Of a DNA stretch of 19,717 nt, positions 3,524-18,936 are shown one piece after another (positions within the stretch are counted from its first letter, which is position 1; every line of letters starts with the position of its first letter). The stretch comes from a bacterium (lineage in GTDB: Bacteria; Verrucomicrobiota; Kiritimatiellia; RFP12; CAIWXQ01): assembly GCA_037144015.1 (NCBI GenBank), contig JBAWXQ010000030.1, forward strand, positions 1 to 19,717, given 5' to 3'. The translations under genes were made by a program, and so were the position numbers. The notes beneath the pieces are model-generated. The model worked only from the letters and a program-made list of their open reading frames with translations. It was not told the DNA's origin and ran no database searches.

Positions 3524-4201
3524 TTGTCTTTCATGAAAGCCAGCACAGACCGGAAGCGCGTGAGCAACCGAACGCTGCTCTACTTTCCCATCGTCCACAG
3601 CCAGTCGGAGATGGGAAAGCTGGGTAAAACCATCCGGAAGGTGACGCAGCAAAAGCTGGGCCGACGCGTCTGGCAGCGCAAGGTTGACCTGGTTGACCGG
3701 TTCTGGGAGCACCTGGCGGAGATTGTCTTCCAGGACCTGGCCATACCTTACGCGCGAACGCGCGTTTATCAGGACGGTCTGCCGGTCTGCGACAAGGAGA
3801 TCGAGATCGTCACGGAGATTGCAAAACTGGGAAGCCCGAATCACCGGCTGCTCCTCCAGCTCCGGGAAAAGGGCGCCACGATCATGGGCACGGAATCCGC
3901 CGAACTGCTGATCAGGGAGTACCGCCTCGCCAAGGAGATCCTCAACGCCGGGGATGCCCGGGAGGCCCTGGAGCTCGAGGCGCAGCAGAAGGCGGCCGGC
4001 GAGCAGCTGCTGGAGAAGCGGGACGCGTTCATTGCGGCACGGATCGACCAGACGCTGCTGGCGGGCGAGACCGGGCTCCTGTTCCTGGGAATGCTGCACA
4101 GCCCGGTGGCCCGGTTGCCGCCGGACATCCGTGTGCTTTATCCGCTGGAGGGGCTGCTGGAAAAAGGCGGCCCCCTGGACAGCGAGGTACGCAAGCGATG
4201 A
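3524..4201 (+). CDS. Hypothetical protein, first gene of the gvp regulatory operon (start TTG at 3524, or ATG at 3533)
   Basis: 225-aa ORF with no recognisable domain and a helical, charged C-terminal half. The stop overlaps the start of the downstream NtrC-like gene (ATGA at 4198-4201), indicating translational coupling. Confidence 0.55.
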   Translation: MSFMKASTDRKRVSNRTLLYFPIVHSQSEMGKLGKTIRKVTQQKLGRRVWQRKVDLVDRFWEHLAEIVFQDLAIPYARTRVYQDGLPVCDKEIEIVTEIAKLGSPNHRLLLQLREKGATIMGTESAELLIREYRLAKEILNAGDAREALELEAQQKAAGEQLLEKRDAFIAARIDQTLLAGETGLLFLGMLHSPVARLPPDIRVLYPLEGLLEKGGPLDSEVRKR

Positions 4202-5625
4202 AAACCGCCCCCGCCCAGCCCGCCCCCGCCCAGCCCGCCCCCGCCCAGCCCGTACGCGCCCTGATCGTGGACGATGACGATGACGTGCGGAGCATGCTGA
4301 CGCTGATCCTGGAAAAGGAGGGGCTCACGGTGATGGCCGCTGCGGACGGCCAGACCGCGCTGCGCCTGCTCCAGTCGCCCCTGTCCGTCCCGGATGTCGT
4401 GCTGCTCGATGTGCGCATGCCGGGGCTCAGCGGCCTGGATGTCCTGGCGAAGATCCGCGAGATGGGAAACCAGCTTCCTGTGGTGCTGATCACGGCGTAT
4501 GCCGACGTGCGGCAGTCTGTCCAGGCGATGAAGTGCGGCGCCTATGATTACCTTACCAAGCCGTTCGACAATCGTGAGGTCGCGCGGGTCACGCTGCAGG
4601 CCTTGTCGGAAAAGCGGGTGAGCCGGCTGAATGCGGCCGGCTGCGCGCCGCTGGAGCACCTGACTCTGTTTACGAGCATGGGGGCGTCGGACGCCGTTGC
4701 CCGGATCACGTCGGATGTGCATCGCGTGGCCACGTCCGATTTTTCCGTCCTGCTCATCGGCGAAACGGGCGCGGGCAAGGATCTGGTGGCCGAGGCGATT
4801 CACCGGGGCAGCGCCCGGCGGGAGGCGCCCTTTGTCGCGGTCGACTGCGGGGCGATCCCCGAGGCGCTGCTGGAAAGCGAGCTGTTCGGGCATGAACGGG
4901 GGTCGTTTACCGGGGCGGACCGCCAGAAGGTGGGGAAGTTTGAGGAAGCCCACGGGGGCACGCTGTTTCTTGACGAGCTAGCCAATCTGCCCTTCGGGTC
5001 CCAGGCAAAACTGCTGCGCGCGATTCAGCGAAAGTCGATTTACCGGGTTGGCGGCACCAAGTTCATCGACGTCAATTTCCGGCTGATTGCCGCCTCCAAC
5101 CGGAGCCTGCGCAAGATGGTGGCCGCCGGCACGTTTCGCGAGGATCTGTATTACCGGCTGTGCGATTTCACCATCGATATTCCCGCGCTGCGGGAGCGGA
5201 AAATGGATGTGCTCTACCTTGCAAAAGTCTTTCTGGAGCAGGTGGAGGTCGAGCTGGGCAAGAAGACGGCGGGCCTTTCGGAAACGGCCGTGGAGGCGCT
5301 GGTCGCCTACGACTGGCCCGGGAACGTCCGCGAGCTCAAGGCGGTGATCCGGCGGGCCGTGCTGGTGGCTGCGGGGCCCATCACCGAGAAGGACCTCAAC
5401 ATCAGGCGCATTGCGATGCCGGCTTCGGCCGATGCGGCGGAGGATGCCCTGGCCTGGCAGGGGGGGTCGCTCCGGGAGATTGTGCAGCGGAGCGTGGTGG
5501 ATGTGGAACGGAAAGTCCTGGCCGGCGTCCTGCGGGTCACCGGCGGAAACAAGGCCAAGGCGGCGCGGCTGCTGCAGGTGGACTACAAGACCATGCACAC
5601 CAAGGTGAAGAAGTTCGGCATCTAA
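4198..5625 (+). CDS. gvrA: Sigma54-dependent response regulator (NtrC family: REC + sigma54-activation AAA+ + Fis-type HTH), GvrA-like
   Basis: REC: [17 protein letters not shown]...[17 protein letters not shown]...[10 protein letters not shown]...[11 protein letters not shown]+: [18 protein letters not shown] (Walker A), [23 protein letters not shown] (GAFTGA motif), GTLFLDEL (Walker B). C-terminal HTH: [23 protein letters not shown]. The symbol is by analogy to the Serratia gvrA regulator and is not proven. Confidence 0.85.
4206..4250 (+). repeat. Three tandem copies of a 15-bp unit (ccgcccccgcccagc) encoding (PAPAQ)3 at the N-terminus of the NtrC-like regulator
   Basis: Copies read at 4206-4220, 4221-4235 and 4236-4250. 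The repeat is in-frame, so copy-number change would alter only the N-terminal linker length. Confidence 0.85.
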
Positions 5626-5641
5626 ACGAAAGGTGGACACC

Positions 5642-6331
5642 ATGAGCAGAAACAACCCTGATCCGGACAAGCAGGCGGGAAAGCCTGCCGCCGGAGGCGG
5701 CCTCTTTAGCAGCCTGACCGACTTTCTGGAGTCGGCGGGGAAGCTGGCCGGCGCGGCCGGGCAGCGGAAGCCGTCGCACGCGGCGGGTGCCGGAGGCGGG
5801 GCAAAAGAGTCCGGCGCCGCGGGCGGTCCGGAGGCCGGCGCGGCGCGCGTGGGCGGGATCCTGAACAACCTGGCCGACCTGGCTGCGAAGCTGAAGGAAC
5901 TCTCGGAAAAAGGAGAATCCCTGTCTGAACAGGGAGAGTTCACGTTCCCGTCCAAAAAAGGCGGCATCAAGGGCGTGTATGGCTTCTCCGTGAAAACAGG
6001 GCTGGGCGAGAAGGGCGACCAGATCAAGGTCGAGCCGTTCGGCAACATCCGCAAGGACCAGAAGACCGGCGAGGCGGCGGTGCAGGAGATCAGCGAGCCG
6101 CTGGTGGATGTCTTTCCGGACACGTCCGGCACCACCCTGGTCGCCGAGATGCCGGGCATGGGCCCGGACGATATCTGCCTTGAAGTCCAGGACGACGTGC
6201 TGACGATCGCCGCGCAAAAGGGCGAGCGGAAGTACCGGAAGGAGCTGCTGCTGGGGCACCTGCTGGCGAAGGATCGCATCGCCGTGGTGTGCAACAATGG
6301 CGTCGCGACCATTCGCTGTGAGAAGCCATGA
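5642..6331 (+). CDS. gvpH: GvpH-like small heat-shock (Hsp20/alpha-crystallin) domain protein with a Gly/Ala-rich disordered N-terminal half
   Basis: The C-terminal segment VDVFPDTSGTTLVAEMPGMGPDDICLEVQDDVLTIAAQKGERKYRKELLLGHLLAKDRIAVVCNNGVATIRCEKP matches the Hsp20 fold pattern (V-D-E...L-I...G-L-I). An ATG at 5642 has an AAAGGTGG RBS at 5629-5636; the ORF table begins at GTG 5633. The position after the NtrC regulator is the same as gvpH in Serratia. The stop overlaps the next gene's start (ATGA). Confidence 0.7.
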   Translation: MSRNNPDPDKQAGKPAAGGGLFSSLTDFLESAGKLAGAAGQRKPSHAAGAGGGAKESGAAGGPEAGAARVGGILNNLADLAAKLKELSEKGESLSEQGEFTFPSKKGGIKGVYGFSVKTGLGEKGDQIKVEPFGNIRKDQKTGEAAVQEISEPLVDVFPDTSGTTLVAEMPGMGPDDICLEVQDDVLTIAAQKGERKYRKELLLGHLLAKDRIAVVCNNGVATIRCEKP

Positions 6332-8463
6332 AAACACAACCACCCGGGGCTGCCGCGCCCATCAAGCTGCGTGTGACCGAAGCCCTGACCAAGGATGTCG
6401 GGCGGGCCTTTGCCCGGATGGGCCCCGAGGATCTGGACCGGCTGCACCTCGCCGTTGGCGACACCGTGGAGGTGGAGGGAAAGCGCAAGGCCGTCTGCAA
6501 GGCGATGCCGGCCTACGCGGACCTTCGCGGACAGTCCCGCGTCCAGCTCGACGGATCCACCCGCGAGAACGCGGGCGCGGGGCTCGATGATCCGGTGAGC
6601 ATCCGCAGGATCTCCTGCCGCCCGGCGGATCGCGTGGTGCTCGCGCCGACCAACGTCGTGCCGGCGGACCGGGACCTGAAGTACATCGGGAGCCTGCTGG
6701 ACGGCCTGCCCGTTCTGGAGGGCGCCAAGATCCAGGCGGCCCTGTTCGGCAGCCGCTCCGCTTTCTTTCAGGTTGAATCCGTGATGCCCAAGGGCGCCGT
6801 GCTGATTCATTCCGGCACGACGCTCGTGATCGGCAAGGCCCAGGCAGAGGAGGGGGCGGGGGCGCTTTCCTACGAGGACATCGGCGGCCTGAAGTCGCAG
6901 CTCCAGCGCATCCGGGAGATGATCGAGCTGCCGCTGCGCTACCCCGAGGTGTTTCAGCGCCTCGGGATTGACGCGCCCAAGGGGGTGCTGCTGTACGGCC
7001 CGCCGGGATGCGGCAAGACCCTGATCGCCCGCGCCATCGCCCACGAGACCGATGCCAGCTTCTTTTCCATCAGCGGGCCGGAAATCATCCACAAGTTCTA
7101 CGGCGAAAGCGAAGCCCACCTGCGGAAGATCTTCGAGGAGGCGACAAAAAAAGGTCCCAGCATCCTGTTCATCGACGAGATCGATGCCATTGCCCCCCGG
7201 CGGGACAATGTGGTTGGCGACGTGGAGAAGCGGGTCGTTGCCCAGCTCCTCGCCCTCATGGACGGGCTGAACAAGCGGCAGAATGTGATCGTCATCGCCG
7301 CCACCAACATCCCCAATGCCCTTGACCCGGCCCTGCGGCGCCCGGGCCGGTTCGACCGGGAGATCGTGATCCCGATACCGGACCGGCGCGGCCGTCTGGA
7401 GATCCTGGAGATTCACAGCCGGGGGATGCCGCTGGCCGGTGACGTCCAGATGGAACACCTGGCGGAGATCACCCACGGCTTTGTGGGCGCGGACCTCGAG
7501 GCGCTTTGCCGGGAGGCGGCCATGGGCTGCCTCCGGCAGATCATGGGGGAGATCGACTTTAGCCAGGCGGGGATTCCGTACGAAACGCTCGCAAAGCTCG
7601 AGGTGCGCATGGAGGACTTCCTGTCCGCCCTGCGGGAGATTGAGCCGTCCGCCATCCGGGAGGTCTTTGTCGAATCGCCCAATGTACACTGGGGCGACGT
7701 CGGGGGTCTGGCCTCCTTGAAGCAGCGCCTGATCGAGGCCGTGGAGTGGCCCTTGAAGCATCCCCGGCTCTTTGAAAAAGGCGGCGTGACGCCACCCAAG
7801 GGGATTTTGCTGGTCGGCCCGCCGGGTTGCGGCAAGACCATGATGGCCAAGGCGATCGCCACCGAGAGCCAGGTCAACTTCATCTCGGTCAAGGGCCCGG
7901 CCCTGATGTCCAAGTGGGTCGGCGAATCGGAAAAGGGGATCCGCGAGATCTTCCACAAGGCCAGGCAGGCTGCGCCGTGCATCATCTTCTTTGACGAGAT
8001 TGACGCCCTGGTGGCGACGCGCAGCGCGGGCACCACCGACTCGCATGTCTCCGAGCGGATCCTGAGCCAGTTCCTGGCGGAGTTTGACGGGATCGACGAG
8101 CTCCGGGGGGTTCTTGTCCTGGGGGCCACCAATCGCCGGGACCTGCTGGATGCCGCCGTTCTCCGCCCAGGGCGGTTCGATGATATCGTCGAGATGACGT
8201 TGCCCGGCGAAGCAGACCGCGAGGCGATCTTCGCTGTGCATTTCCGCGGCAAGCCGCTGGCGAAGCAGATCAAGTGCGCGGCGCTGGCGGCAAAGACCGA
8301 CGGGTTCAGCAGCGCGGACATCGCCGCGGTTGCGCGCAAGGCCGCCATGACTGCGGTTCGCCGGGTCGTGAAGAGCCTGGAGTGTGGCGCGGCGGAAGAG
8401 CCGGAAATCCTGATCCAGCGCGAGGACGTTGACGACGCGCTGGAGGAAGTGCGCAGGCGGTAG
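6328..8463 (+). CDS. CDC48/p97/VAT-like AAA+ ATPase (N-domain plus two AAA modules, D1 and D2)
   Basis: N-terminal region KLRVTEALTKDVGRAFARM...LAVGDTVEVEGKRKAVCKA...SRVQLDGSTRENAGAGLDDPVSIR resembles the double-psi-barrel CDC48 N-domain. D1 has Walker A GPPGCGKTLIARAIAHE, Walker B ILFIDEIDAIAP and an SRH-like region VIVIAATNIPNALDPALRRPGRFDREIVI. D2 has Walker A GPPGCGKTMMAKAIATE, Walker B IIFFDEIDALV and LVLGATNRRDLLDAAVLRPGRFD. Total length is 711 aa, and the gene is translationally coupled to gvpH (ATGA). Confidence 0.85.
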   Translation: MKTQPPGAAAPIKLRVTEALTKDVGRAFARMGPEDLDRLHLAVGDTVEVEGKRKAVCKAMPAYADLRGQSRVQLDGSTRENAGAGLDDPVSIRRISCRPADRVVLAPTNVVPADRDLKYIGSLLDGLPVLEGAKIQAALFGSRSAFFQVESVMPKGAVLIHSGTTLVIGKAQAEEGAGALSYEDIGGLKSQLQRIREMIELPLRYPEVFQRLGIDAPKGVLLYGPPGCGKTLIARAIAHETDASFFSISGPEIIHKFYGESEAHLRKIFEEATKKGPSILFIDEIDAIAPRRDNVVGDVEKRVVAQLLALMDGLNKRQNVIVIAATNIPNALDPALRRPGRFDREIVIPIPDRRGRLEILEIHSRGMPLAGDVQMEHLAEITHGFVGADLEALCREAAMGCLRQIMGEIDFSQAGIPYETLAKLEVRMEDFLSALREIEPSAIREVFVESPNVHWGDVGGLASLKQRLIEAVEWPLKHPRLFEKGGVTPPKGILLVGPPGCGKTMMAKAIATESQVNFISVKGPALMSKWVGESEKGIREIFHKARQAAPCIIFFDEIDALVATRSAGTTDSHVSERILSQFLAEFDGIDELRGVLVLGATNRRDLLDAAVLRPGRFDDIVEMTLPGEADREAIFAVHFRGKPLAKQIKCAALAAKTDGFSSADIAAVARKAAMTAVRRVVKSLECGAAEEPEILIQREDVDDALEEVRRR

Positions 8464-8464
8464 G

Positions 8465-9265
8465 ATGAACCAGGGAATCTATCTGTTCTGCCTGACGCCG
8501 GAAAACGACCGGCTGGTGCTGGCGGACGCCGGAGACGATCCGGCGCAGCCGCTTGCAGCCGCGGCCGTCGCCGGAGTCACCGCCATTGTTGCTCCGGTTT
8601 CCCTGAATGACTTCTGCGGCCCGGAGTCCCGCGCGCGGCTGGCGGACCTGGCATGGGTGGGGCCGCGGGCGCAGCGTCACGAAGAGGTCATCCTGGCCGT
8701 GATGCGCCAGGCGCCGGTGCTGCCGGTGCGGTTCGGGAGCGTGTTCTCCTCCCTGGCGGCGCTGTCGGCTTCGCTGGAACGGCAGCGTGAGGCCATGGCG
8801 CAGTTTTTCCTGGACACGGCCGGCCATCAGGAGTGGACGCTCAAGGCCTTTGTGGACCGGTCGCAGGCAAGGGCGAGGGTCATGGCCACACGGCTGGCGG
8901 CGGAGAAAGAACAGCTGGATGCGCTGGCGCCGGGGAAACGCTATCTGCAGGAGCAGAAGATCAATGGCGTCGTGGACCGGGAGGTGGCGTTCGGGCTCAA
9001 AAAGATGGCCGCCGGGATCAGCCTCTTCTTTCAGGAGGTGGCCCCTGTGTCCTGTGTCGGTCGCCTGCTGCCCCGGGACGTGACGGGGCGGGATGACGAA
9101 ATGTTTTTTCATTCCGCCCTGCTGGTGCCCGACGGCGCCGTCGCGCAGCTGCAGCGACTGGCCGCTGCGTGGAATGCCCGGCATGCGTCCATGGGGATGA
9201 TTCTGGAGGCCTCGGGCCCCTGGCCTCTCTACCATTTCACACCTGTCAGCAGCGCCGCGCCATGA
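8465..9265 (+). CDS. gvpF: Gas vesicle protein GvpF/GvpL family (paralog 1)
   Basis: Starts MNQGIYLFCL (ATG 8465). The C-terminal hallmark is SGPWPLYHF (GPWPPY[N/H]F-type motif of GvpF/L). Length is about 266 aa. The ORF table begins earlier at 8429, but that ATG overlaps the upstream stop. Confidence 0.8.
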   Translation: MNQGIYLFCLTPENDRLVLADAGDDPAQPLAAAAVAGVTAIVAPVSLNDFCGPESRARLADLAWVGPRAQRHEEVILAVMRQAPVLPVRFGSVFSSLAALSASLERQREAMAQFFLDTAGHQEWTLKAFVDRSQARARVMATRLAAEKEQLDALAPGKRYLQEQKINGVVDREVAFGLKKMAAGISLFFQEVAPVSCVGRLLPRDVTGRDDEMFFHSALLVPDGAVAQLQRLAAAWNARHASMGMILEASGPWPLYHFTPVSSAAP

Positions 9266-9269
9266 GCCT

Positions 9270-9995
9270 ATGGTCTACCTGGTCTATGGAATTTTGAAAG
9301 CTTCGGCCGCCGGCAGCGGACCGCTGGCGGGCGTGCGGGGCGCGTGCGTGACCATCGTCACCGCGCATGGCCTCGCTGCGGCCATCTCGCAGCTGGATGC
9401 GGCGGTTCATGCGCCCTCCGTGGACGAGCTGCTTGTCTATGGCCGGGTGGTGGATGCGCTTTTCCGCCGGCAGGCGGTGGTCCCGTTGCGATATGGCTGT
9501 TTTTTGAACGGGCCGGCGGCGGTCGAGGCGGTTCTGGAAGCGAAAAAAGATTCTTGCGAAGCCCTGCTGGCGGAGCTGGACGGGCAGGCGGAGATGGGGA
9601 TCCGGATTCTGCTGCCCGCAGGTGCAGAGACGGTGCCGCCCGCGGCGCAGCCGGTGGATGGCAGCGCGTATCTTGCCCGGCGGAAGGCGCACTACCAGAT
9701 GCAGGAGGCCGACGCCCGGCAGCATCAGGCGCTGCTGGACCGGTACGTGCAGGCCCTGGCCGGACTGAATGGAAAGCACCGGACCGAGACAGCCACGCGC
9801 GACGGCGCGGTCGCCCTGTCGCTCGATTATTTGATTCCGAAGAGCCAGGTCAGCGCGTTTCGGGAGATCTTTCGCGGGGTGGCGGCGCAGGAAGGCACCC
9901 GGGTTCAGCTCAGCGGCCCGTGGCCGCCGTACAATTTTTCCATGCCGTCCGACCTGACGGCGCCAAGGGGCCGGTCGGATAGGAGGTTGCCGTGA
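9270..9995 (+). CDS. gvpL: Gas vesicle protein GvpF/GvpL family (paralog 2)
   Basis: Starts MVYLVYGIL and ends ...QLSGPWPPYNFSMPSDL. This is the canonical GvpF/L architecture, at 241 aa. It is tandem to the previous GvpF/L, as with gvpF2-gvpF3 of Serratia. Confidence 0.8.
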   Translation: MVYLVYGILKASAAGSGPLAGVRGACVTIVTAHGLAAAISQLDAAVHAPSVDELLVYGRVVDALFRRQAVVPLRYGCFLNGPAAVEAVLEAKKDSCEALLAELDGQAEMGIRILLPAGAETVPPAAQPVDGSAYLARRKAHYQMQEADARQHQALLDRYVQALAGLNGKHRTETATRDGAVALSLDYLIPKSQVSAFREIFRGVAAQEGTRVQLSGPWPPYNFSMPSDLTAPRGRSDRRLP

Positions 9996-11572
9996 ATGAA
10001 AACCCGGAAAATCCGGCTGTCCCGGCTGTCGCCCTGCGGTATGGAAAACTCTACGAAATGCTGCTGGAGGCGATTCCCTTCTCGGTCCTCCTGATTCTGC
10101 CAAGCCTGCGCATTCATTCGGCAAATCGCAATTTTTTGAACAAGAGCCAGAAGGCCCTGCCGGATGTCGTGGGGCACCGGATCGAGGACGTCTTTCCCGC
10201 CGTGATCTGCGAGCAGATGGCGATTACCCGGCGTATCCGCAACGTCTTCGAAACCAACCACCCGGTCGAGGGCGACCGGATGACCTACCGGGCGCCGGGC
10301 GTGCCCCTGCGCATCTATTACTACAGCCTGCTCCCGTTCATCTGGCAGGGGCGGACAGAAGGCGTGCTTCTGCTGATGAATGATATGACGGAGCAGGTGC
10401 GCCTCGGCGAAGAGGTGCGGCGGGTGGAGCAGCACCTGGCCAGCATTGTGGACAGCGCCAGCGACCTCATCCTCTCGACTGATTTGGCGGGCCGGATCCT
10501 GACGTGGAATACCACGGCAGAGCGGCTCTCGGGATATGCCGCGGCCGAGGCGCGCGGGCGGAGCTTTGCCGAATTCTGCGCCGGGGAGAGTGCGGACATC
10601 CAGGGCGTTTTCGCGCGGGACGGAGTCCAGAGCCGGGAGTGGCTCTTCAAGACGAGGCAGTCGGAGCTGCTGCTCGTCGCCTGGGGCTTCTCGCCGCTGC
10701 TGGATCACCAGGGGCAGGCCGTCGGGGTCGTGTGCGTGGGGCGGGACCTGACGGAACGGCGGAAGTTCGAGATGGAACTGGTCCAGTCCCAGAAGATGGC
10801 GGCGCTGGGTGTCATGGCCGGCGGCATTGCCCACGAGATCCGGAACCCGCTGGCCAGCTGCTCGTCGGCCGCCCAGTTCCTCGCCGACGAAAAGGTTATT
10901 TCGCCGGAGTTTCTCCGGGAGTGCGCGGAGACGATCCGGCGCGGGGTCCGGCGGGCGTCCACGATCATCGAGAATCTTCTGCGCTACGCGCATCCCGACA
11001 CGCCGATCCATCCGTCGCCTGTCAATTTGGTTGACCTGATCACTGAAACGCTGGCCCTGGTGGCGGCTCACGCCAGGCTGAACCAGGTCGAGACGGGAAC
11101 GTCGTTTGCCAGTGCCCCGGCCATGGTGCAGGGCGTGGGCACGCTGCTGCAGCAGGTTTTCATGAACCTGTTCCTGAATGCGATTCAGGCCATGCCCACC
11201 GGGGGACGACTGCAGGTGGTTTTGGACATGGAGGATGGCGGCCTCCGGGTCCGGGTGATCGACTCGGGCTGCGGCATCCGGAAGGAAAACATCCAGAAGG
11301 TCTTTGACCCATTCTATACGACGTCGACCGCCAAGGATGGCACCGGGCTTGGGCTGGCCATCTGCTACACGGTGATGAAGCAGCACGGCGGCAGCATCGC
11401 GATTGAAAGCAATGTGGGGTCTGGCTGCACGGTCACGGTCCGTTTTCCCCGCCCGGGCGCCTCACGCGCAGGATCCGAAAGCCGGCCGTCGCACGTTTCG
11501 CTGCCCGGCGGTCATGAAACGGAAGCACATGCCGTGTTTTCGGGAAGCAATTCCATAGCCTCCCGGCCATAG
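9992..11572 (+). CDS. gvrB: PAS-domain sensor histidine kinase (HisKA + HATPase_c), GvrB-like
   Basis: Starts at GTG 9992, with an AGGAGG RBS at 9981-9986. The H-box is [11 protein letters not shown], the N-box LNAIQA, G1 VIDSGCGI and G2 GTGLGLAI. Upstream PAS-like region: [24 protein letters not shown]. No obvious TM segments, so it is probably cytoplasmic. Confidence 0.85.
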
Positions 11573-11718: not shown

Positions 11719-11937
11719 ATGGCAAAGATTCAGAAATCAACGGATTCCTCGAGCCTGGCCGAGGTTGTCGACCGCATCCTGGACAAGGGTATTGTCATCG
11801 ATGCGTGGGTGAAGGTGTCGCTGGTCGGCATCGAGCTGCTCTCGGTCGAAGCGCGCGTCGTGATCGCGTCTGTTGAGACGTATCTCAAGTACGCCGAGGC
11901 GATTGGTTTGACGGCCAATGCCGCCACGCCTGCCTGA
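11719..11937 (+). CDS. gvpA: Gas vesicle structural protein GvpA (major shell protein)
   Basis: [64 protein letters not shown] is the highly conserved GvpA core. Length is 72 aa. A GGAG RBS at 11708-11711 lies 7 nt before the ATG. Confidence 0.95.
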
Positions 11938-12671: not shown

Positions 12672-13046
12672 ATGACGCGGCGTAGATCAGTCAGGAGTAC
12701 GGTTGCATTCATCGAAGGGGTTTGCGCTTTTTGCCGCGGCAAAGGTGTGGACCCCTTCGCTGTCATGTCGGCGCGCTCCACGTGCTGCGTGTGCTCGGGA
12801 ACATGCAAGGTGCGGGTTCGTGCGCCGATTATTTCCTGCGCGCACTGCCGCGGCACGGGGGCTGTCAAAACCTTGACTTGTACGGTCTGTGGCGGCAAGG
12901 GCTCGGTTCACCGGCCGGCGCAGCCAACGAGGGTCTGCCCGGTTTGTCACGGCACGGGCGACGATGCCTCCGCGCCGGCCATGGACTGTTTGAAGTGCCG
13001 GGGACGCGGTTGTGTCACCGGAGTGAAGCCAACTAAGGGAGCCTGA
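12672..13046 (+). CDS. DnaJ-type zinc-finger (CxxCxGxG repeat) protein, BSD2-like stand-alone cysteine-rich domain
   Basis: Six CxxCxGxG-type motifs in 124 aa: CAFCRGKG, CCVCSGTC, CAHCRGTG, CTVCGGKG, CPVCHGTG, CLKCRGRG. AGGAAG lies 5 nt before the ATG at 12672. There is no J-domain. Confidence 0.75.
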   Translation: MTRRRSVRSTVAFIEGVCAFCRGKGVDPFAVMSARSTCCVCSGTCKVRVRAPIISCAHCRGTGAVKTLTCTVCGGKGSVHRPAQPTRVCPVCHGTGDDASAPAMDCLKCRGRGCVTGVKPTKGA

Positions 13047-13051
13047 TCGTC

Positions 13052-14029
13052 ATGAGTCGTAATTCCACCAAAGTTGAATCCCTGCCGACCGTACGCGTGC
13101 CGACGACGGCGGACGGCGTCCAGCCAGAAGCCGGCGACAGTTTCGTGTCTTCCGCTTACGTCGAGCAGGTCACCAAGCGTGCGCTGGCATACCTGATCGC
13201 CGGATACGCCGTCCATTTCTCGGGCGTGGCGGGAACGGGCAAGACGACCATGGCGTTCCATGTGGCATCCAAGCTGGGCCGGCCGGTCACGCTGGTGCAC
13301 GGGGATGACGAGTTCGGCAGCTCCGACCTGGTTGGGCGCGACGGCGGCTACAAGAAGCACAAGGTGGTCGACAACTTCATCCACTCCGTCCTGAAGACGG
13401 AAGAGGAGTCGCGGAACTTCTGGGTGGATGATCGGCTCACCACGGCATGCAAGACCGGGGAGATCTTTATTTACGACGAGTTCAACCGCTCCCGCCCGGA
13501 GGCCAACAACGCCCTGCTGAGCGTTCTTTCCGAGGGCATTCTGAACCTGCCGAAGCTCCGCCAGTCGGGGGAGGGCTACCTGACCGTGCACCCGGAGTTC
13601 CGCGCCATCTTCACCTCGAACCCCGAAGAATACGCCGGCGTCCACAAGACGCAGGATGCCCTGATGGACCGCCTGATCACCATCCACCTGGAGCACTACG
13701 ACCGGGAAACAGAGGTCATGATCGTCAAGCGGAAGTCCGGCCTGCCGCTGGAGGATGCCGAGCGGATCGTGGACATGGTGCGCGAGCTGCGCATGTTCGG
13801 GGTGAACAATCACCGCCCGACCATCCGGGCCGGCATTGCCATCGGGCGGATCCTGTTCTCCCAGAAGCGCCGCGCCCGTGCGGACGACGAGTTCTTTCTG
13901 CTGGTCTGCCGCGATGTGCTGGCCACCGACACGGCCAAGGTCACCCATGGCGGCCAGCCGCTGATGCTGGAAAAGGTGGAAGAGGTTCTTCGCCGGGTCT
14001 GCAGTCCGGGCAAGACAGGCCGGAAATAG
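13052..14029 (+). CDS. gvpN: Gas vesicle protein GvpN (AAA+ ATPase of the CbbQ/NirQ/NorQ/GvpN family)
   Basis: Walker A is FSGVAGTGKTTMAFHVA, Walker B IFIYDEFNRS. TSNPEEYAGVHKTQDALMDRL and the overall length of 325 aa match the GvpN family. Confidence 0.85.
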   Translation: MSRNSTKVESLPTVRVPTTADGVQPEAGDSFVSSAYVEQVTKRALAYLIAGYAVHFSGVAGTGKTTMAFHVASKLGRPVTLVHGDDEFGSSDLVGRDGGYKKHKVVDNFIHSVLKTEEESRNFWVDDRLTTACKTGEIFIYDEFNRSRPEANNALLSVLSEGILNLPKLRQSGEGYLTVHPEFRAIFTSNPEEYAGVHKTQDALMDRLITIHLEHYDRETEVMIVKRKSGLPLEDAERIVDMVRELRMFGVNNHRPTIRAGIAIGRILFSQKRRARADDEFFLLVCRDVLATDTAKVTHGGQPLMLEKVEEVLRRVCSPGKTGRK

Positions 14030-14040
14030 GGGAGACGGAC

Positions 14041-14367
14041 ATGCCTACGACAAAGAAAGTGCTGCGCGGGGTGCAGAACATACGGACCATGTCGGGCCGG
14101 GTGGACGACCAGGCCCTTCCGTACAAGGCGTATATGAAGATCAGCGTGCTCGAAATGGAAAAGCACCGCCGGGGCGTCGAAAAGGCCTGCGCGCTGGAGA
14201 AGGTGCGGCAGATCGACCAACGGTTTCTGGAGATCGAGGCGGAAAAGAGGAAGGCCCTGCAGTCGCTGAAGTCGCAGGGCGCGCCCCTGCCGCAAGGTCG
14301 GCGGGCGGCGGCGCATCCGGCCGCGGCGCCAATCCGGAACACGGGCTCATTTAAGATCAGGTATTAA
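14041..14367 (+). CDS. Hypothetical small protein (108 aa) immediately after gvpN, in the GvpO/GvpV position
   Basis: MPTTKKVLRGVQNIRTMSGRVDD...EKHRRGVEKACALEKVRQIDQRFLEIEAEKRKALQSLKSQG has a charged, helical character. GGAGACGG lies upstream of the ATG at 14041. It occupies the same frame-1 ORF as the ORF-table entry 13447..14367, whose upstream part overlaps gvpN in another frame. Confidence 0.5.
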   Translation: MPTTKKVLRGVQNIRTMSGRVDDQALPYKAYMKISVLEMEKHRRGVEKACALEKVRQIDQRFLEIEAEKRKALQSLKSQGAPLPQGRRAAAHPAAAPIRNTGSFKIRY

Positions 14368-14601
14368 CGGCGTGCAGGAGGTTGTAATGCTGCTCATCAG
14401 TGACTCAAGTCATATTCGTACGAACCGTCACCGCAGGGGCCCCCGGGCCTGCCGGACGCTGACGGGGTTTTTCACAGGCCGCGGCGAGGCGCAGCGCGTC
14501 TGCCATGCGCACGTGAATCTGCTGAACCGGCGGCTCCGGTTGGCCTGGCTCAGCCGCCAGTGGGTTGGGCATCAGGAAAGAATGGCATTCAGTAAGGAAC
14601 A

Positions 14602-14808
14602 ATGGACATGAAAATCAACTGTTTATCCTGTGGTCATAACATCACGCTTGAGGATGAGACGTATAACGATTACGAGGGCGCGATCAAATGCTTTGCCTGC
14701 AGCGCGATTCTGGAGGTCAAGCTGGCGGAAGGGTGCGTCAAGTCGGTGAAAATTCATGCGACACAAACCGGCCGCGCGGCCGATGGGCCGGGCAAGCACA
14801 GGGCGTAA
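14602..14808 (+). CDS. Small zinc-ribbon protein (CxxC...CxxC), with lower GC than its neighbours
   Basis: M(D)MKINCLSCGHNITLEDETYNDYEGAIKCFACSAILEVKL contains two CxxC pairs about 19 aa apart. An AAGGAA RBS precedes ATG 14602/14608. The codon usage is conspicuously AT-richer than the surrounding genes. Confidence 0.45.
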   Translation: MDMKINCLSCGHNITLEDETYNDYEGAIKCFACSAILEVKLAEGCVKSVKIHATQTGRAADGPGKHRA

Positions 14809-14829: not shown

Positions 14830-15591
14830 ATGGCTGCCAAGACAACCAGCGCGGGGAAGTATCTGTATGCCGTCGTCCAGGCGTCCGGCGACCGTGACTA
14901 TGGCGAGATCGGCATTGACGGGGCGCGGGTGTATCTCATTTCGGATGAGCACGTCGCGGCGGTGGTCAGTGATTTTACCGCCGGCAAGATCCGCCCGGAG
15001 CGACGGCACATCGCGGCGCACCAGGCCGTCCTGAAGCGAGTCCTGGCAGACGAATCGCTCCTGCCGATCAGCTTCGGCATCATCGCGGAGGGGTCCAAGG
15101 AGATCCGGCGGATTCTGACGCTCAACCGGAAGCCGTTCGTGAAGCAAATCCAGCGCGTGTTCGGCAAGGTGGAGATGGGCCTGCGCGTGTCCTGGGACGT
15201 TCCCAACATCTTCGAATACTTTGTCAACACCCATGCCGAGTTGCGGGTGGCGCGCGACCAGCTGCTGGGCGGAAACGGCTCGCCGTCCCGCGAGGACCAG
15301 GTGGAGGTCGGTCGGCTGTTCGACCGGTTGCTCCAGTACGAGCGCGAAGAGCTCACGCAGAAGGTAGAGGCGTGCTTGAAAGGCTGCTGTGTTGAGATCA
15401 AGCGGAACCCTCCGCGCAACGAAAAAGATGTGATGAACCTTGCCTGCCTTGTGACACGCCAGTCCGGCGAGAAGGATTTTGAGGCGGCCATCTGCGTGGC
15501 GGCCCAGGGGTTCGACAATAACTTTTCGTTCGATTTCAACGGTCCCTGGGCGCCGCACAATTTTGTGGATGTCGAGCTGGTCCTCGAGTGA
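14830..15591 (+). CDS. gvpF: Gas vesicle protein GvpF/GvpL family (paralog 3)
   Basis: MAAKTTSAGKYLYAVVQAS...ISFGIIAEG...FNGPWAPHNFVDVELVLE has the canonical N-terminal YLYA[VI] beta-strand and the C-terminal GPWxPxNF motif. A GGGAG RBS lies upstream. Confidence 0.8.
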   Translation: MAAKTTSAGKYLYAVVQASGDRDYGEIGIDGARVYLISDEHVAAVVSDFTAGKIRPERRHIAAHQAVLKRVLADESLLPISFGIIAEGSKEIRRILTLNRKPFVKQIQRVFGKVEMGLRVSWDVPNIFEYFVNTHAELRVARDQLLGGNGSPSREDQVEVGRLFDRLLQYEREELTQKVEACLKGCCVEIKRNPPRNEKDVMNLACLVTRQSGEKDFEAAICVAAQGFDNNFSFDFNGPWAPHNFVDVELVLE

Positions 15592-15642: not shown

Positions 15643-16035
15643 GTGTTCCTGGTTGATGACATCATTCTTTCGCCGATCCGCGGCCTGATCTGGGTCTTTC
15701 GCGAGATTCACAGTGCCGCCGGCAAGGATCTTGCCGCGGAACCTGCGGCCATCACCGCCCGCCTCGGCGAACTCTACATGATGCTGGAGACCGGCCAGCT
15801 GAACGAGGCCGAGTTCGACGCCCAGGAGAAAACGCTTCTGGATCGCCTGGATTTCTTGAAGTCGGCTTCCGTCGGCGACGCGGAGGATGCCGGAGACGAC
15901 AGCGAAGAGAACGAGGCTGGCGAGGAGGATGAGCCGGACGGCGACGGCGAGGCGGAGGTTGCGGACAGACCAACGGATGGCGCGATGGATCGCGTGCGCC
16001 CCGGAGAACATTCCCAAGGACGGGCAGACTCGTGA
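15643..16035 (+). CDS. gvpG: Gas vesicle protein GvpG with an extended acidic C-terminal tail
   Basis: (GTG start) MFLVDDIILSPIRGLIWVFREI...LGELYMMLETGQLNEAEFDAQEKTLLDRLDFL matches the GvpG family pattern (compare B. megaterium GvpG: LHKLVTAPINLVVKIGEKV...LMRYE). The tail DAEDAGDDSEENEAGEEDEPDGDGEAEVAD is strongly acidic. The stop overlaps the start of the downstream ArsA-like gene. Confidence 0.7.
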   Translation: MFLVDDIILSPIRGLIWVFREIHSAAGKDLAAEPAAITARLGELYMMLETGQLNEAEFDAQEKTLLDRLDFLKSASVGDAEDAGDDSEENEAGEEDEPDGDGEAEVADRPTDGAMDRVRPGEHSQGRADS

Positions 16036-18053
16036 GGGACATGCAGAAATCATCCGGGTTCCCGCCGGCCGATAACCTGCCGCTGTTGCTTTTTGGAGGA
16101 AAGGGCGGCGTCGGCAAAACGACAGCCGCCACGGCGACGGCGCTCGACCTTGCTGTTCGGAACCCGGGGCAGTCCATTCTTCTGGTTTCCACGGATCCCG
16201 CGCACTCCCTGCGAGACAGCTTTGCCGGTGACAAGCCGCCGCCGAACCTGACGGTGCTGGAGCTGGATGCCGGCGCCTGCCTGCAGGCTTTCCAGGCGGA
16301 GAACCGGCAGCGACTCCTGGAGATCGCCTCGCGGGGAACCTTTCTGGACGGCGAGGACATCGACCGGTTTCTGGCGCTATCCCTTCCGGGCATGGATGAG
16401 CTCATGGGGTTTATGGAGATCAACCGCTGGGTCCGGGATGGCACCTATGCCCGGATTGTCGTGGATACGGCGCCCACCGGGCACGCCCTGCGGCTGATGG
16501 GGATGCAGGCGCAGATGCAGAAGTGGCTGCAGGCGCTGGACGCTCTGCTGGCCAAGCACCGGTACATGAAGAAGCTTTTCCAGGGGCACTATGAGCGCGA
16601 CGACCTCGACCGCTTCATCGAGGGCCTCGCCGACTCCGTCCAGGCGACAGGCGCGCGGCTCATGGATCACCAGCAGTGCCGCTTTGTTCCGGTGATGCTG
16701 GCCGAAGCCTTGAGCGTCGAGGAGACGCTGGACCTGATCCGGGAGCTGCGCCGGCTGGGCATCGGGACGGATCATGTGGTGGTCAATCGCCTGTATCCGG
16801 AAAGCGGCTGCGATCTGTGCCGGGCCGTGCGCGGCCAGCAGCTGCAGGAACTTGCGCGGCTGGCGGATGCGGCGCTTTTTTCCGGCAAGCAGCTTTGGGG
16901 CGTCCCCATGTATCCGCTGGAAATCAAGGGGCTGGAGGGCCTGCGCGCCTTCTGGAAGGGGCTCGCGCCGATCCCGACGTCCTGCGCGGAACGTCCGTGC
17001 GCCCGGCCACGAATCGCTCCGCGCGTCGACAACCCCGCTCCGCTGCCGCCGCCGGACACGACGCTGCTGGTCTTTGCCGGCAAGGGTGGGGTTGGCAAGA
17101 CCACCCTGGCCTGTGCCACGGCCCTGCGCCTGGCCCATGAGCACCCCGGGAAGCGAGCCCTGCTTTTCTCCGCCGATCCCGCCCACTCGCTGGCCGACTG
17201 TCTGGGGCTGCCCGTGGGCCCCGTCCCGGAGCAGGTGGTGCCGGGCCTGTGGGCCATGGAAATGGACGCCCCCGCCGGGTTTGCTGCGTTGAAAGAGCAG
17301 TACCGCAAGGAGCTGGAGCAGTTTCTCGCGCGTCTGATGCCGAACCTCGACCTGACGTTCGATCGTGAAGTGATGGAGCGGATCATGGATCTGTCGCCCC
17401 CGGGGATTGATGAGCTGATGGCCCTTGCGGCGGTGATGAACCATCTGTCTCCGGAGGGGTACGACATCCTGATCCTTGACGCGGCTCCGACCGGGCACTT
17501 GATCCGGCTGCTGGAGTTGCCGGAGATCATTGAGAACTGGCTGAAGGTGGTGTTCAGCATTTTCCTCAAGTACCGGAACATCTTCCGCCTGCCGGGAATC
17601 TCGGCGCGCCTGATCGGCCTGTCCAAGGACCTGAAGCGCCTGCGGGCAGTTCTGCGCGATCCGTCCCGCGCGGGCCTCTACAGCGTCAGCATCCTCACGG
17701 AAATGTCCTTTGCGGAGACGGGGGACCTCCTGGCTGCCTGTGAGCGTCTGGCCATTCCGGTTTCCGGCTTGTTTTTGAACCTGGCAACGCCGGATTCCGC
17801 CGACGCCCTCTGCGCATCGATTTTCGCCCGTGAGTCGCAAACCCGGGCGCGCATCGCGGCGGCGTTTCCCGGCACGCCGCAGACGCTTGTGTATCGGCAA
17901 AGCGAACCGCGGGGCACGGCAAACCTGGCGGCGCTGGGAATGCAACTCTACCTGCCGCCTGGCGACGGAGCCGGGCAGGCGCGAACGGCCGTCGGCAGCA
18001 GACGCCGGACGGAGCGAAGCCGGTCGCCAACCGGTGAGGTTTTGTATGCCTGA
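16032..18053 (+). CDS. Fused tandem ArsA/GET3-family ATPase (two deviant-Walker-A P-loop NTPase halves)
   Basis: Half 1: LLLFGGKGGVGKTTAATATA, DPAHSL, and the A-loop/switch II VVDTAPTGHALRL. Half 2: LLVFAGKGGVGKTTLACATA, DPAHSL, ILDAAPTGHLIRLL. A CDLC (CxxC) lies in the first half (PESGCDLCRAV). The protein is 673 aa. Start is GTG 16032 or ATG 16041, and the stop overlaps the ATG of the next gvpA-like gene (18046). Confidence 0.85.
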   Translation: MRDMQKSSGFPPADNLPLLLFGGKGGVGKTTAATATALDLAVRNPGQSILLVSTDPAHSLRDSFAGDKPPPNLTVLELDAGACLQAFQAENRQRLLEIASRGTFLDGEDIDRFLALSLPGMDELMGFMEINRWVRDGTYARIVVDTAPTGHALRLMGMQAQMQKWLQALDALLAKHRYMKKLFQGHYERDDLDRFIEGLADSVQATGARLMDHQQCRFVPVMLAEALSVEETLDLIRELRRLGIGTDHVVVNRLYPESGCDLCRAVRGQQLQELARLADAALFSGKQLWGVPMYPLEIKGLEGLRAFWKGLAPIPTSCAERPCARPRIAPRVDNPAPLPPPDTTLLVFAGKGGVGKTTLACATALRLAHEHPGKRALLFSADPAHSLADCLGLPVGPVPEQVVPGLWAMEMDAPAGFAALKEQYRKELEQFLARLMPNLDLTFDREVMERIMDLSPPGIDELMALAAVMNHLSPEGYDILILDAAPTGHLIRLLELPEIIENWLKVVFSIFLKYRNIFRLPGISARLIGLSKDLKRLRAVLRDPSRAGLYSVSILTEMSFAETGDLLAACERLAIPVSGLFLNLATPDSADALCASIFARESQTRARIAAAFPGTPQTLVYRQSEPRGTANLAALGMQLYLPPGDGAGQARTAVGSRRRTERSRSPTGEVLYA

Positions 18054-18237
18054 CACAGATTTGCTGGAAACAGAGCATGTGAGCCTGTGCGAGGTTCTGG
18101 ACCGGGTTCTCAACAAGGGCGCCGTGGTGATCGGCGAGGTTATGATTTCCGTCGCCGATGTCGATCTGATCTACCTGAGCTTGCAAGTGGTCATATCCTC
18201 GGTGGAAACGGCGCGAAAGTCGCAGGAAATGCCATGA
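18046..18237 (+). CDS. gvpS: Small GvpA/GvpJ/GvpS-family gas vesicle protein (63 aa)
   Basis: MPDTDLLETEHVSLCEVLDRVLNKGAVVIGEVMISVADVDLIYLSLQVVISSVETARK carries the GvpA-family core (LxxVLDRxLxKGxVxxGxxxISxxxVxL...SVETA). A GGTGAGG RBS is present. The gene is translationally coupled on both sides. Confidence 0.8.
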   Translation: MPDTDLLETEHVSLCEVLDRVLNKGAVVIGEVMISVADVDLIYLSLQVVISSVETARKSQEMP

Positions 18238-18611
18238 AGCACGAGCAAACCTGCATGGATGCAGCGCCTGTCGCCGGGCCGGCGCCGGATGTCGCGGCCA
18301 TCAGCGACTTTTCCCGCGCCATGGCCTCCGGCGCAGCTTCGCGTCAGCCCCGGCGGCTGAACCTCGATGCGGAAAAGACCCGGAACGGCCTGGCGCAACT
18401 CGTGTTGACCGTGGTCAAGCTGCTGCACGAGCTTCTGGAGAAGCAGGCGCTGCGGCGAATGGAGGCCGGAGACCTTACGGATGCCGAAATTGAGCGTCTC
18501 GGGCAGACCTTGATGCGGCAGTCCGAGGAGCTCGCCCGCATCTCGCGCGAGTTCGGCCTGACGGCGGATGATTTGAATCTGGATCTGGGACCCTTGGGAA
18601 AACTTTTATAA
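18234..18611 (+). CDS. gvpK: Gas vesicle protein GvpK
   Basis: NGLAQLVLTVVKLLHELLEKQALRRMEAGDLTDAEIERLGQTLMRQSEELARISREFGLTADDLNLDLGPLGKLL matches GvpK closely (compare B. megaterium ...GLAQLVMTVIELLRQIVERHAMRRVEGGTLTDEQIENLG...DLNIDLGPLGSLL). The ATG at 18234 overlaps the upstream stop (ATGA). Confidence 0.9.
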   Translation: MKHEQTCMDAAPVAGPAPDVAAISDFSRAMASGAASRQPRRLNLDAEKTRNGLAQLVLTVVKLLHELLEKQALRRMEAGDLTDAEIERLGQTLMRQSEELARISREFGLTADDLNLDLGPLGKLL

Positions 18612-18624
18612 CAGGAGGTGTCAT

Positions 18625-18936
18625 ATGGCAGTCACACGCAGAGTTGCAACGTCCGTTGGCGGTACAAACCTGGCGGATCTTCTGGAGCGGATTCTCGACA
18701 AGGGCATCGTGATCGCCGGCGATATCCGGATCAACCTCGTGGATGTCGAGCTGCTGACGATTCAGATCCGCCTGGTGATCTGCTCGGTGGATAAGGCAAA
18801 AGAAATGGGCATGGACTGGTGGGTAAACAACCCCGCCTTGTGTTCGCGGGGCAAAGAGCAGGTGGCGCCCGGGGCAATCGAAGAGCTCGAAGGTCGTCTG
18901 GCGCGGCTTGAGACGTCGCTGGCTGCGCAGCGATGA
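18625..18936 (+). CDS. gvpJ: Gas vesicle protein GvpJ (GvpA-family minor structural protein)
   Basis: [51 protein letters not shown] is the canonical GvpJ core plus a C-terminal extension. An AGGAGGTG RBS lies at 18613-18620. Confidence 0.85.
   Translation: MAVTRRVATSVGGTNLADLLERILDKGIVIAGDIRINLVDVELLTIQIRLVICSVDKAKEMGMDWWVNNPALCSRGKEQVAPGAIEELEGRLARLETSLAAQR

Follow-up and report, generated by a model that had tools for sequence, protein, structure and literature searches.

A tandem Get3/ArsA-fold ATPase encoded in gas-vesicle gene clusters, a candidate accessory factor for GvpA-family proteins

Two-domain homologues of ArsA were described in gas-vesicle (gvp) operons of four phyla by Castillo and Saier (2010, Int J Microbiol, PMC2963123), with examples from Polaribacter, Pelodictyon, Geobacter uraniireducens, Anabaena/Nostoc, and an acidobacterium. 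These homologues lack Cys113, Cys172, and Cys422 as well as an accompanying arsR, and they were proposed to energise a step of gas-vesicle biogenesis. Here we analysed a bacterial DNA stretch of 19,717 nucleotides (contig JBAWXQ010000030.1; the whole stretch is called the window), which is essentially one large gas-vesicle locus, and within it the gene for a tandem ATPase of the Get3/ArsA fold, referred to below as the ATPase. The ATPase joins this known, bioinformatically defined group. The homologues of Clusters 4 and 6 in that study (e.g., Gur2 of Geobacter uraniireducens Rf4 and an acidobacterial protein) have the same tandem architecture of ~640 amino acids and likewise lie inside gvp operons with gvpF/G/J/K/L/M/N and Hsp20. 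The ATPase falls within the range of ~600–700 amino acids, is encoded in a gvp cluster without arsR, and has likewise lost the three cysteines, which are replaced by L, L, and G; the first (L) and third (G) residues match those reported for Cluster 6. It differs from the described homologues in that its lineage has a DxxC motif in the second half.

The preliminary description of this locus had presented such an ATPase as a new mechanistic component of gas vesicle biogenesis, a claim that is superseded by the gvp-operon ArsA homologues reported in 2010. What our analysis adds is the CxxC/DxxC pair, the Met-rich and longer helical subdomains, the separation from ArsA, a much wider phyletic spread, and a presence/absence polymorphism at one operon slot; the earlier study did not note the CxxC pair, the Met-rich helical subdomains, or the polymorphism. 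Literature searches combining gas vesicles with Get3, tail-anchored, or ArsA terms returned nothing relevant beyond that paper, and the idea of a Get3-like chaperone for GvpA-family subunits was absent from the searched literature. Keeping the extremely hydrophobic GvpA-family proteins soluble and inserting them into the growing shell is an open problem in assembly; current models assign the chaperoning of GvpA to GvpF and GvpG (Iburg et al. 2024, PMC11445434).

The ATPase gene, its adjoining genes, and its sequence motifs are located as follows (alignment A1 is an alignment of the ATPase's own subfamily).

15643..16035, + strand: gvpG, with an N-terminal hydrophobic helix (PF05120)
16032..16035, + strand: GTGA overlap of the gvpG stop and the ATPase start
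16032..18053, + strand: tandem Get3/ArsA-fold ATPase
16095..16124, + strand: Walker A (deviant P-loop) of half 1, GGKGGVGKTT, residues 22-31, invariant in alignment A1
16194..16211, + strand: switch I of half 1, DPAHSL, residues 55-60, including the Asp equivalent to the Get3 catalytic Asp
16464..16484, + strand: switch II of half 1, DTAPTGH, residues 145-151
16809..16820, + strand: Get3-type CxxC of half 1, C260-D-L-C263, invariant in alignment A1
17076..17105, + strand: Walker A of half 2, AGKGGVGKTT, residues 349-358
17175..17192, + strand: switch I of half 2, DPAHSL, residues 382-387
17478..17498, + strand: switch II of half 2, DAAPTGH, residues 483-489
17802..17813, + strand: half-2 counterpart of the CxxC, D591-A-L-C594, with Asp replacing the first Cys
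18046..18053, + strand: ATGCCTGA overlap of the ATPase stop and the start of the small GvpA-family gene
18046..18237, + strand: small GvpA-family paralogue (GvpJ/M-like) of 63 amino acids, candidate client (PF00741, E 3e-16)

The Pfam family ArsA_ATPase (PF02374) matched the ATPase twice (E 8.8e-108), and the NCBIfam model TIGR00345 (GET3_arsA_TRC40) scored 366 bits against a cutoff of 135; both matches are far beyond chance. Together with the deviant Walker A, the DPAHS of switch I, and switch II, these scores place the protein in the TRC40/GET3/ArsA superfamily and show it to be an internally duplicated SIMIBI-class ATPase, the halves of which are 36% identical to each other. The search with PF02374 had been called for in the preliminary description, which had read the protein as a pseudo-dimeric ArsA/GET3-type ATPase; the two domain matches and the TIGR00345 score agree with that reading, and DPAHSL in both halves and a single CxxC, confined to the first half, were also correctly recognised. 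Its statement that both halves carry GGKGGVGKTT and DTAPTGH applies to half 1; the corresponding motifs of half 2 are one residue off each, and each half has the functional cores GKGGVGKT and D-x-A-P-T-G-H. The two nucleotide sites appear intact, with a Walker A containing the signature Lys, the switch I Asp, and switch II.

The AlphaFold2 (AF2) model of the ATPase (predicted local distance difference test, pLDDT, 74.8; predicted template-modelling score, pTM, 0.72) has the expected two-lobed fold. Foldseek matched the full protein to full-length ArsA and to Chlamydomonas reinhardtii ArsA1, and matched each half to Get3, in part to structures that hold a transmembrane domain. Among solved structures, sequence similarity is highest for C. 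reinhardtii ArsA1 (150 bits, the top match), TRC40 of M. thermautotrophicus, ArsA of L. ferriphilum, and human ASNA1, with E. coli ArsA weaker than these (122 bits).

Each of these systems resembles the ATPase in part. Get3/TRC40 (yeast 2woj/4xtr; M. thermautotrophicus 3zq6; M. jannaschii 3ug6) has the same fold, deviant Walker A, and switches I and II, a CxxC at the homologous position, and a Met-rich helical subdomain of similar length; each half of the ATPase matches it with a template-modelling (TM) score of 0.65-0.76, normalised to the target. In contrast to Get3, the ATPase is a fused tandem single chain and not a homodimer, carries DxxC in half 2, and would have as its presumed clients shell proteins of a protein-bounded gas organelle instead of membrane proteins. 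ArsA1 of C. reinhardtii (5zme/5zmf), a tandem Get3 homologue for chloroplast tail-anchored proteins, likewise joins two Get3-like halves in one pseudo-dimeric chain, and its function is unrelated to arsenic. This eukaryotic, plastid-related protein has no CxxC in the region aligned to CDLC, and its nucleotide-free form superposes poorly (root-mean-square deviation ~16 Å). ArsA itself (E. coli R773 1f48/1ii0; L. ferriphilum 9nbw) shares the A1-A2 tandem architecture and the DTAPTGH signal-transduction motif and is the best full-length structural match (TM ~0.6-0.7), whereas the helical subdomains of the ATPase are longer and Met-richer, and its halves group apart from the ArsA halves.

To relate the ATPase to its genomic setting, we examined the best 120 of the thousands of relatives in the protein database, which are 67-75% identical to it. 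Those with a source name are mostly from metagenome-assembled genomes (MAGs) of Desulfobacterota, and many carry labels such as 'arsenite-transporting ATPase', a systematic misannotation of the family. Scanning genome contigs with the single ATPase protein gave nothing, and a repeat with the alignment A1 pattern yielded at least 80 ArsA/GET3-family loci from GTDB species-representative genomes, which are a sample and not a census. When the flanks of 80 loci were searched by tblastn with the Gvp proteins of the window, gvpA/F/G/J/K/N were found beside 16 of the 18 best-scoring ones (L001-L008, L010-L015, L017, and L027). The other two are L009, on a 3.2-kb contig too short to judge, and L016 (Lyngbya), with no gvp gene within 10 kb. 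The same search found gvp genes near none of the remaining 62 weaker-scoring loci. The gvp-linked loci come from Gemmatimonadota, Gammaproteobacteria (Thiohalocapsa), Chloroflexota, Acidobacteriota, Myxococcota, Rokubacteria, and Planctomycetota, so that the survey of co-occurrence with gvp clusters proposed in the preliminary description gave a positive answer across at least seven phyla. These results show that the ATPase belongs to a clade tied to gvp clusters and not to arsenic-resistance operons.

Gene order around the ATPase is also conserved. P0097 and, from a spirochaete, P0087 are close homologues (67-69% identity) encoded in clusters syntenic with the window. We distinguished three cluster architectures, in which a GvpF/L paralogue flanks the ATPase, mostly upstream, and a GvpJ/M-like gene followed by gvpK lies downstream. 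In 18 of the 21 mapped relatives a GvpF/L gene precedes the ATPase, either immediately or with one gene in between, and in type-2 clusters the GvpF/L paralogue directly follows the ATPase. In type-1 clusters the small GvpA-family paralogue (GvpJ/M-like) comes after the ATPase, and the complete order F-(G)-ATPase-...-GvpJ/M-like-K was present in ~2/3 of the mapped loci.

Two observations concern the distribution of the clade. The cluster of a spirochaete (Rectinemataceae MAG, L083) is 99% identical to the window in GvpA, 86% in a CDC48-like protein, 81% in GvpN, and 68% in the ATPase, and other close matches are labelled Thermoleophilia and Patescibacteria; it appears that the whole cluster moves between phyla by horizontal transfer, or that some of the bins are contaminated. 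The Lyngbya sp. locus (L016, 8230-12082) encodes a cyanobacterial member of the clade with no CxxC and with a low-complexity insert. Its gene adjoins a CDC48-like AAA+ gene on the opposite strand, which hints at a functional ATPase pair independent of gvp genes.

For a closer comparison with ArsA, we took 16 proteins as true ArsA for the alignment, four of which were checked against the ArsA equivalog model TIGR04291. The CDLC of half 1 falls in the alignment on CEFC, the zinc motif of M. thermautotrophicus TRC40 (3zq6), which supports the proposed homology to the Get3 zinc motif. This CxxC is present in 11 of 15 gvp-linked relatives and in none of the 16 true ArsA proteins. The two aligned CxxC columns of half 2 hold Cys in 12 and 11 of the 15 relatives, respectively, and again in 0/16 of the ArsA proteins; in alignment A1, C594 never varies and D591 is conserved to at least 90%. 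The CxxC/DxxC pair suggests an intramolecular Cys3-Asp zinc hinge. In the close family, Met makes up 4.8-5.4% of the helical subdomains; the figure is 1.4-2.0% for true ArsA and 6.1% for archaeal single-domain homologues with CxxC. Between switch II and a conserved Asn, the N half of the ATPase has 101 residues and the C half 94 (ArsA, 87 and 75; CxxC single-domain homologues, 108), making the helical segment 14-19 residues longer than in ArsA. In neighbour-joining (NJ) trees of the separated halves, the N and C halves of the core gvp-type proteins formed a common group that excluded all ArsA halves in 46/60 bootstraps, and the ArsA N-halves were monophyletic in 52/60; the exact 37-tip clade of all gvp-type halves was poorly supported (5-6/60). 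The trees suggest, with moderate support, a fusion event separate from the duplication that gave rise to ArsA.

The ATPase gene is tightly joined to both neighbours. The open reading frame (ORF; 16032..18053, +) encodes 673 amino acids from a GTG start to the TGA at 18051-18053. An alternative start, ATG 16041, would give 670 amino acids and is used in the NCBI copy of the protein (P0001). We tentatively prefer GTG 16032, because the N-termini of homologues (MKD.../MRD...) line up in alignment A1 with the MRD... read from this GTG, and because of its spacing to an AAGGA 10 nt upstream. This GTG overlaps the gvpG TGA (16033-35) as GTGA; with either start no more than 5 nt separate the ATPase gene from gvpG, and the two genes are almost contiguous. 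At the 3' end, the ATG (18046) of the 63-residue Gas_vesicle-family gene, preceded by a GGTGAGG Shine-Dalgarno sequence 8 nt upstream, overlaps the ATPase TGA (18051-53) as ATGCCTGA, i.e., by -8 nt. The placement of the ATPase between gvpG and a small GvpA-family gene, with overlaps at both junctions, is therefore as first described. The accompanying claim of stoichiometric co-translation with the structural proteins goes too far, since overlaps are not evidence of stoichiometry and the stop-to-start gap to the downstream GvpA-family gene varies between -14 and +41 nt across 11 of 13 type-1 loci. The exact overlap at the 3' junction is thus lineage-specific. What such overlaps do indicate is co-transcription, perhaps with coupled translation.

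The C-terminal tail of the ATPase (residues ~646-673) is variable in alignment A1 and predicted to be disordered (pLDDT <30). Many tails in the alignment end in V-Q-H-A, V-Q-H-V, or V-L-Y-A. These recurring endings fit a conserved overlap of the ATGnnTGA type between the ATPase stop and the start codon downstream, rather than selection at the protein level.

By analogy with Get3, we tentatively favour, at somewhat less than even odds, the reading that the ATPase acts as a Get3-like covalent dimer, an accessory proteostasis factor that would shield a hydrophobic segment of a gas-vesicle protein. The two halves would behave as a covalently linked Get3 dimer, in which ATP binding would close the pseudo-dimer around a putative zinc hinge (Cys260, Cys263, Asp591, and Cys594) and thereby form a hydrophobic, Met-lined groove. 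This groove could shelter an aggregation-prone hydrophobic segment. The likeliest client would be the co-expressed GvpJ/M-like paralogue encoded just downstream, the most economical choice, or GvpA; alternatively, the groove might take up the GvpG N-terminal helix. The groove would then open, either through hydrolysis of ATP or when the ATPase docks on the GvpF/G/L/K machinery, and the subunit would be handed over at the site of nucleation or growth. The ATPase might work beside the Hsp20-like, CDC48-like, and DnaJ-zinc-finger proteins encoded in the same cluster. Such shielding fits the conclusion of Iburg et al. (2024) on the chaperoning of GvpA by GvpF and GvpG, and the presence of these three chaperone-like genes, and chaperoning of GvpA-family proteins in the manner of Get3 is plausible. 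A more specific version, in which a Get3-type targeting ATPase fused in one chain delivers GvpA-family subunits (likely the GvpJ/M-like nucleating paralogue) by means of a Met-lined groove and a Cys3-Asp or Cys4 zinc hinge, we consider doubtful.

Several points weigh against a Get3-like role. The link of the ATPase to any Gvp client, and all of the mechanistic steps, rest on analogy, and Gvp proteins are not tail-anchored membrane proteins. In the more distant gvp-linked relatives the helical-subdomain Met content is only ~3%, and four of them are without any CxxC. The confidence of the AF2 model is low exactly in the helical subdomains, and the NJ support for an origin separate from ArsA is only moderate. 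No Get1/2-, Get4/5-, or Sgt2-like partner appeared among the Pfam matches of the window, in which no dedicated search for them was made. About a quarter of the syntenic clusters, moreover, do not have the gene at this slot. Among metagenome contigs seeded on GvpA, 19 type-1 clusters had gvpG and its successor visible: the ATPase follows gvpG directly in 13 and lies elsewhere in the cluster in one (L111), and the remaining five (L107, L117, L126, L137, and L154) run from gvpG to the small GvpA paralogue with no ATPase. To our knowledge, the model gvp clusters of Halobacterium, B. megaterium, and Serratia also make gas vesicles without such an ATPase gene. Because of these five clusters and the model clusters, GvpA chaperoning cannot depend on the ATPase in general. 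The ATPase gene is accessory, and neither core nor universally required.

Other explanations were weighed against the Get3-like role. The tandem ArsA_ATPase domains with DTAPTGH-type motifs and the arsenite-related source names of its relatives could point to a true ArsA, the ATPase of an arsenite/antimonite pump, lying in a gvp operon by chance. This explanation is refuted at the level of sequence, leaving it a negligible probability. On the ArsA equivalog hidden Markov model (HMM) TIGR04291, the ATPase scored 171 bits against a cutoff of 650. ArsA controls from the same locus sample (L020, L022, L030, and L031) reached 820-918 bits, and five gvp-linked relatives and the Lyngbya clade member gave 167-265 bits. 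The three columns that are Cys in 16/16 true ArsA proteins are L114, L182, and G458 in the ATPase, positions consistent with Cys113, Cys172, and Cys422 of R773, and are Cys in 0/15 gvp-linked relatives; the loss of As(III)-binding cysteines, named earlier as a point to check, is thus found at all three sites. A Pfam scan of the window ORFs, in which two of the 20 listed ORFs had no match and the GvpV-like gene was scanned as a longer out-of-frame ORF, matched no ars family (no arsB, acr3, arsD, or arsR), in line with the earlier remark that arsD, arsB, and arsR are not nearby. The linkage of 16 of the 18 best-scoring sampled loci to gvp genes and the separate grouping of the ArsA N-halves also speak against a true ArsA. 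Because the TIGR04291 score is far below the cutoff, the metalloid cysteines are lost, and the window is without ars genes, including any ArsB/Acr3/ArsD partner, we conclude from its sequence that the ATPase is not an arsenite-pump subunit. In one relative, the genome with P0097 (L081), the gvp cluster is immediately followed on the opposite strand by an ArsP_1 permease gene and an ArsR-type HTH (helix-turn-helix) regulator gene (12928-14497, -), and ArsP has been linked with ArsA homologues (Castillo and Saier 2010). We rejected this pair as a sign of an arsenic role, since its genes run opposite to the cluster and neither the window nor L083 has them; it is probably a coincidence.

Three further explanations keep the ATPase within gas-vesicle biology. 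It could be an ATP-driven switch or remodeller of GvpF/L, GvpG, and GvpK that gates nucleation or recycles these factors, with no groove for shell subunits. The GvpF/L paralogue is the most constant neighbour of the ATPase, upstream or one gene away in most mapped relatives and downstream in type-2 clusters, SIMIBI ATPases commonly serve as nucleotide-dependent dimer switches, and the general role of energising a biogenic step, as proposed in PMC2963123, would be covered. We nevertheless consider this unlikely, since it leaves unexplained the Met-rich, longer helical subdomains and the tight junction with the downstream small GvpA paralogue. The conserved Get3-type CxxC, the other stress-chaperone genes of the cluster (Hsp20-like, DnaJ zinc finger, and CDC48-like), and the established holdase mode of Get3 would suit a redox- or stress-activated, ATP-independent holdase, whose zinc site opens as in yeast Get3 and which keeps Gvp proteins from aggregating. 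This appears improbable: the strict conservation of both ATP sites argues for a nucleotide-driven function, four gvp-linked relatives have no CxxC, and the named close homologues belong for the most part to Syntrophales, Desulfobaccales, and Syntrophobacterales, whose known members are mainly anaerobes, so oxidative activation seems unlikely. Still less probable is a positioning role of the ParA/MinD type, in which the ATPase would space, cluster, or partition gas vesicles in the cell. Carboxysomes and other cargo are positioned by related SIMIBI ATPases, and the deviant Walker A and weak CbiA, ParA, and AAA_31 matches around the P-loops are in keeping with such a role, but these matches are far weaker (ParA itself, PF10609, only at residues 344-370; MinD 21-27 bits against cutoffs >200) and the full-length match is to Get3/ArsA. 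Moreover, ParA and MinD lack the helical subdomains of this fused pseudo-dimer, and no adaptor-like partner is evident.

A widespread, optional Get3-like ATPase gene between gvpG and a minor GvpA paralogue makes its product a testable candidate for an ATP-driven holdase or loader, and nature already offers the clusters to compare, some with the ATPase at this slot and some without it. Where such clusters serve as acoustic reporter genes, the gene could influence the yield. If Get3-type delivery were true, the client shuttling of Get3 would extend from lipid membranes to a protein-shelled, gas-filled organelle, and a function would be assigned for the first time to a bacterial tandem Get3 homologue.

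The other genes of the window are listed below.

274-1167, - strand: NYN-domain/OST-HTH protein
1357-2445, + strand: ORF of 362 amino acids with no Pfam match, upstream of the regulators
3524-4201, + strand: ORF of 225 amino acids with no Pfam match, upstream of the regulators
4198-5625: sigma-54 activator
5633-6331, + strand: Hsp20-like gene, co-travelling with the cluster in relatives
6328-8463, + strand: CDC48-like double AAA+ gene (CDC48_N + 2x AAA), co-travelling with the cluster in relatives
8429-9265, + strand: GvpL/GvpF paralogue
9270-9995, + strand: GvpL/GvpF paralogue
9992-11572: PAS histidine kinase
11719..11937, + strand: gvpA, major shell protein of 72 amino acids
11995-12666: Lys/Pro/Ala-rich ORF of 223 amino acids with no Pfam match, directly after gvpA in the gvpC position
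~12672-13046: small Cys-rich protein carrying zinc-finger repeats of the DnaJ type (CXXCXGXG), located after the gvpA region and before gvpN
13052..14029, + strand: gvpN (AAA_5), the cluster's second ATPase
14041-14367: GvpV-like ORF
14602-14808: zinc ribbon ORF (CxxC...CxxC) of 68 amino acids, just upstream of gvpF
14830..15591, + strand: gvpF (GvpL_GvpF family)
18234..18611, + strand: gvpK, with an ATGA overlap with the preceding small GvpA-family gene
18625..18936, + strand: GvpJ-like GvpA-family paralogue of 103 amino acids, with related copies found in the loci by tblastn

The Hsp20-like and CDC48-like pair is kept with the gvp locus in relatives from several phyla, the CDC48 proteins being 51-87% identical. 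A Cdc48-type unfoldase as a regular component of gas-vesicle clusters appears to be as unstudied as the Get3-like gene. The DnaJ-type zinc-finger protein recurs in related clusters (L003, L015, L081-83, L094, L107, L110, L117, and L157) and may be a further chaperone-like accessory factor. In the 223-residue ORF that follows gvpA, only the N-terminal part is conserved in close relatives; this ORF may encode a non-homologous analogue of GvpC. The zinc-ribbon ORF upstream of gvpF is kept at the same place in many type-1 clusters, with 34-66% identity.

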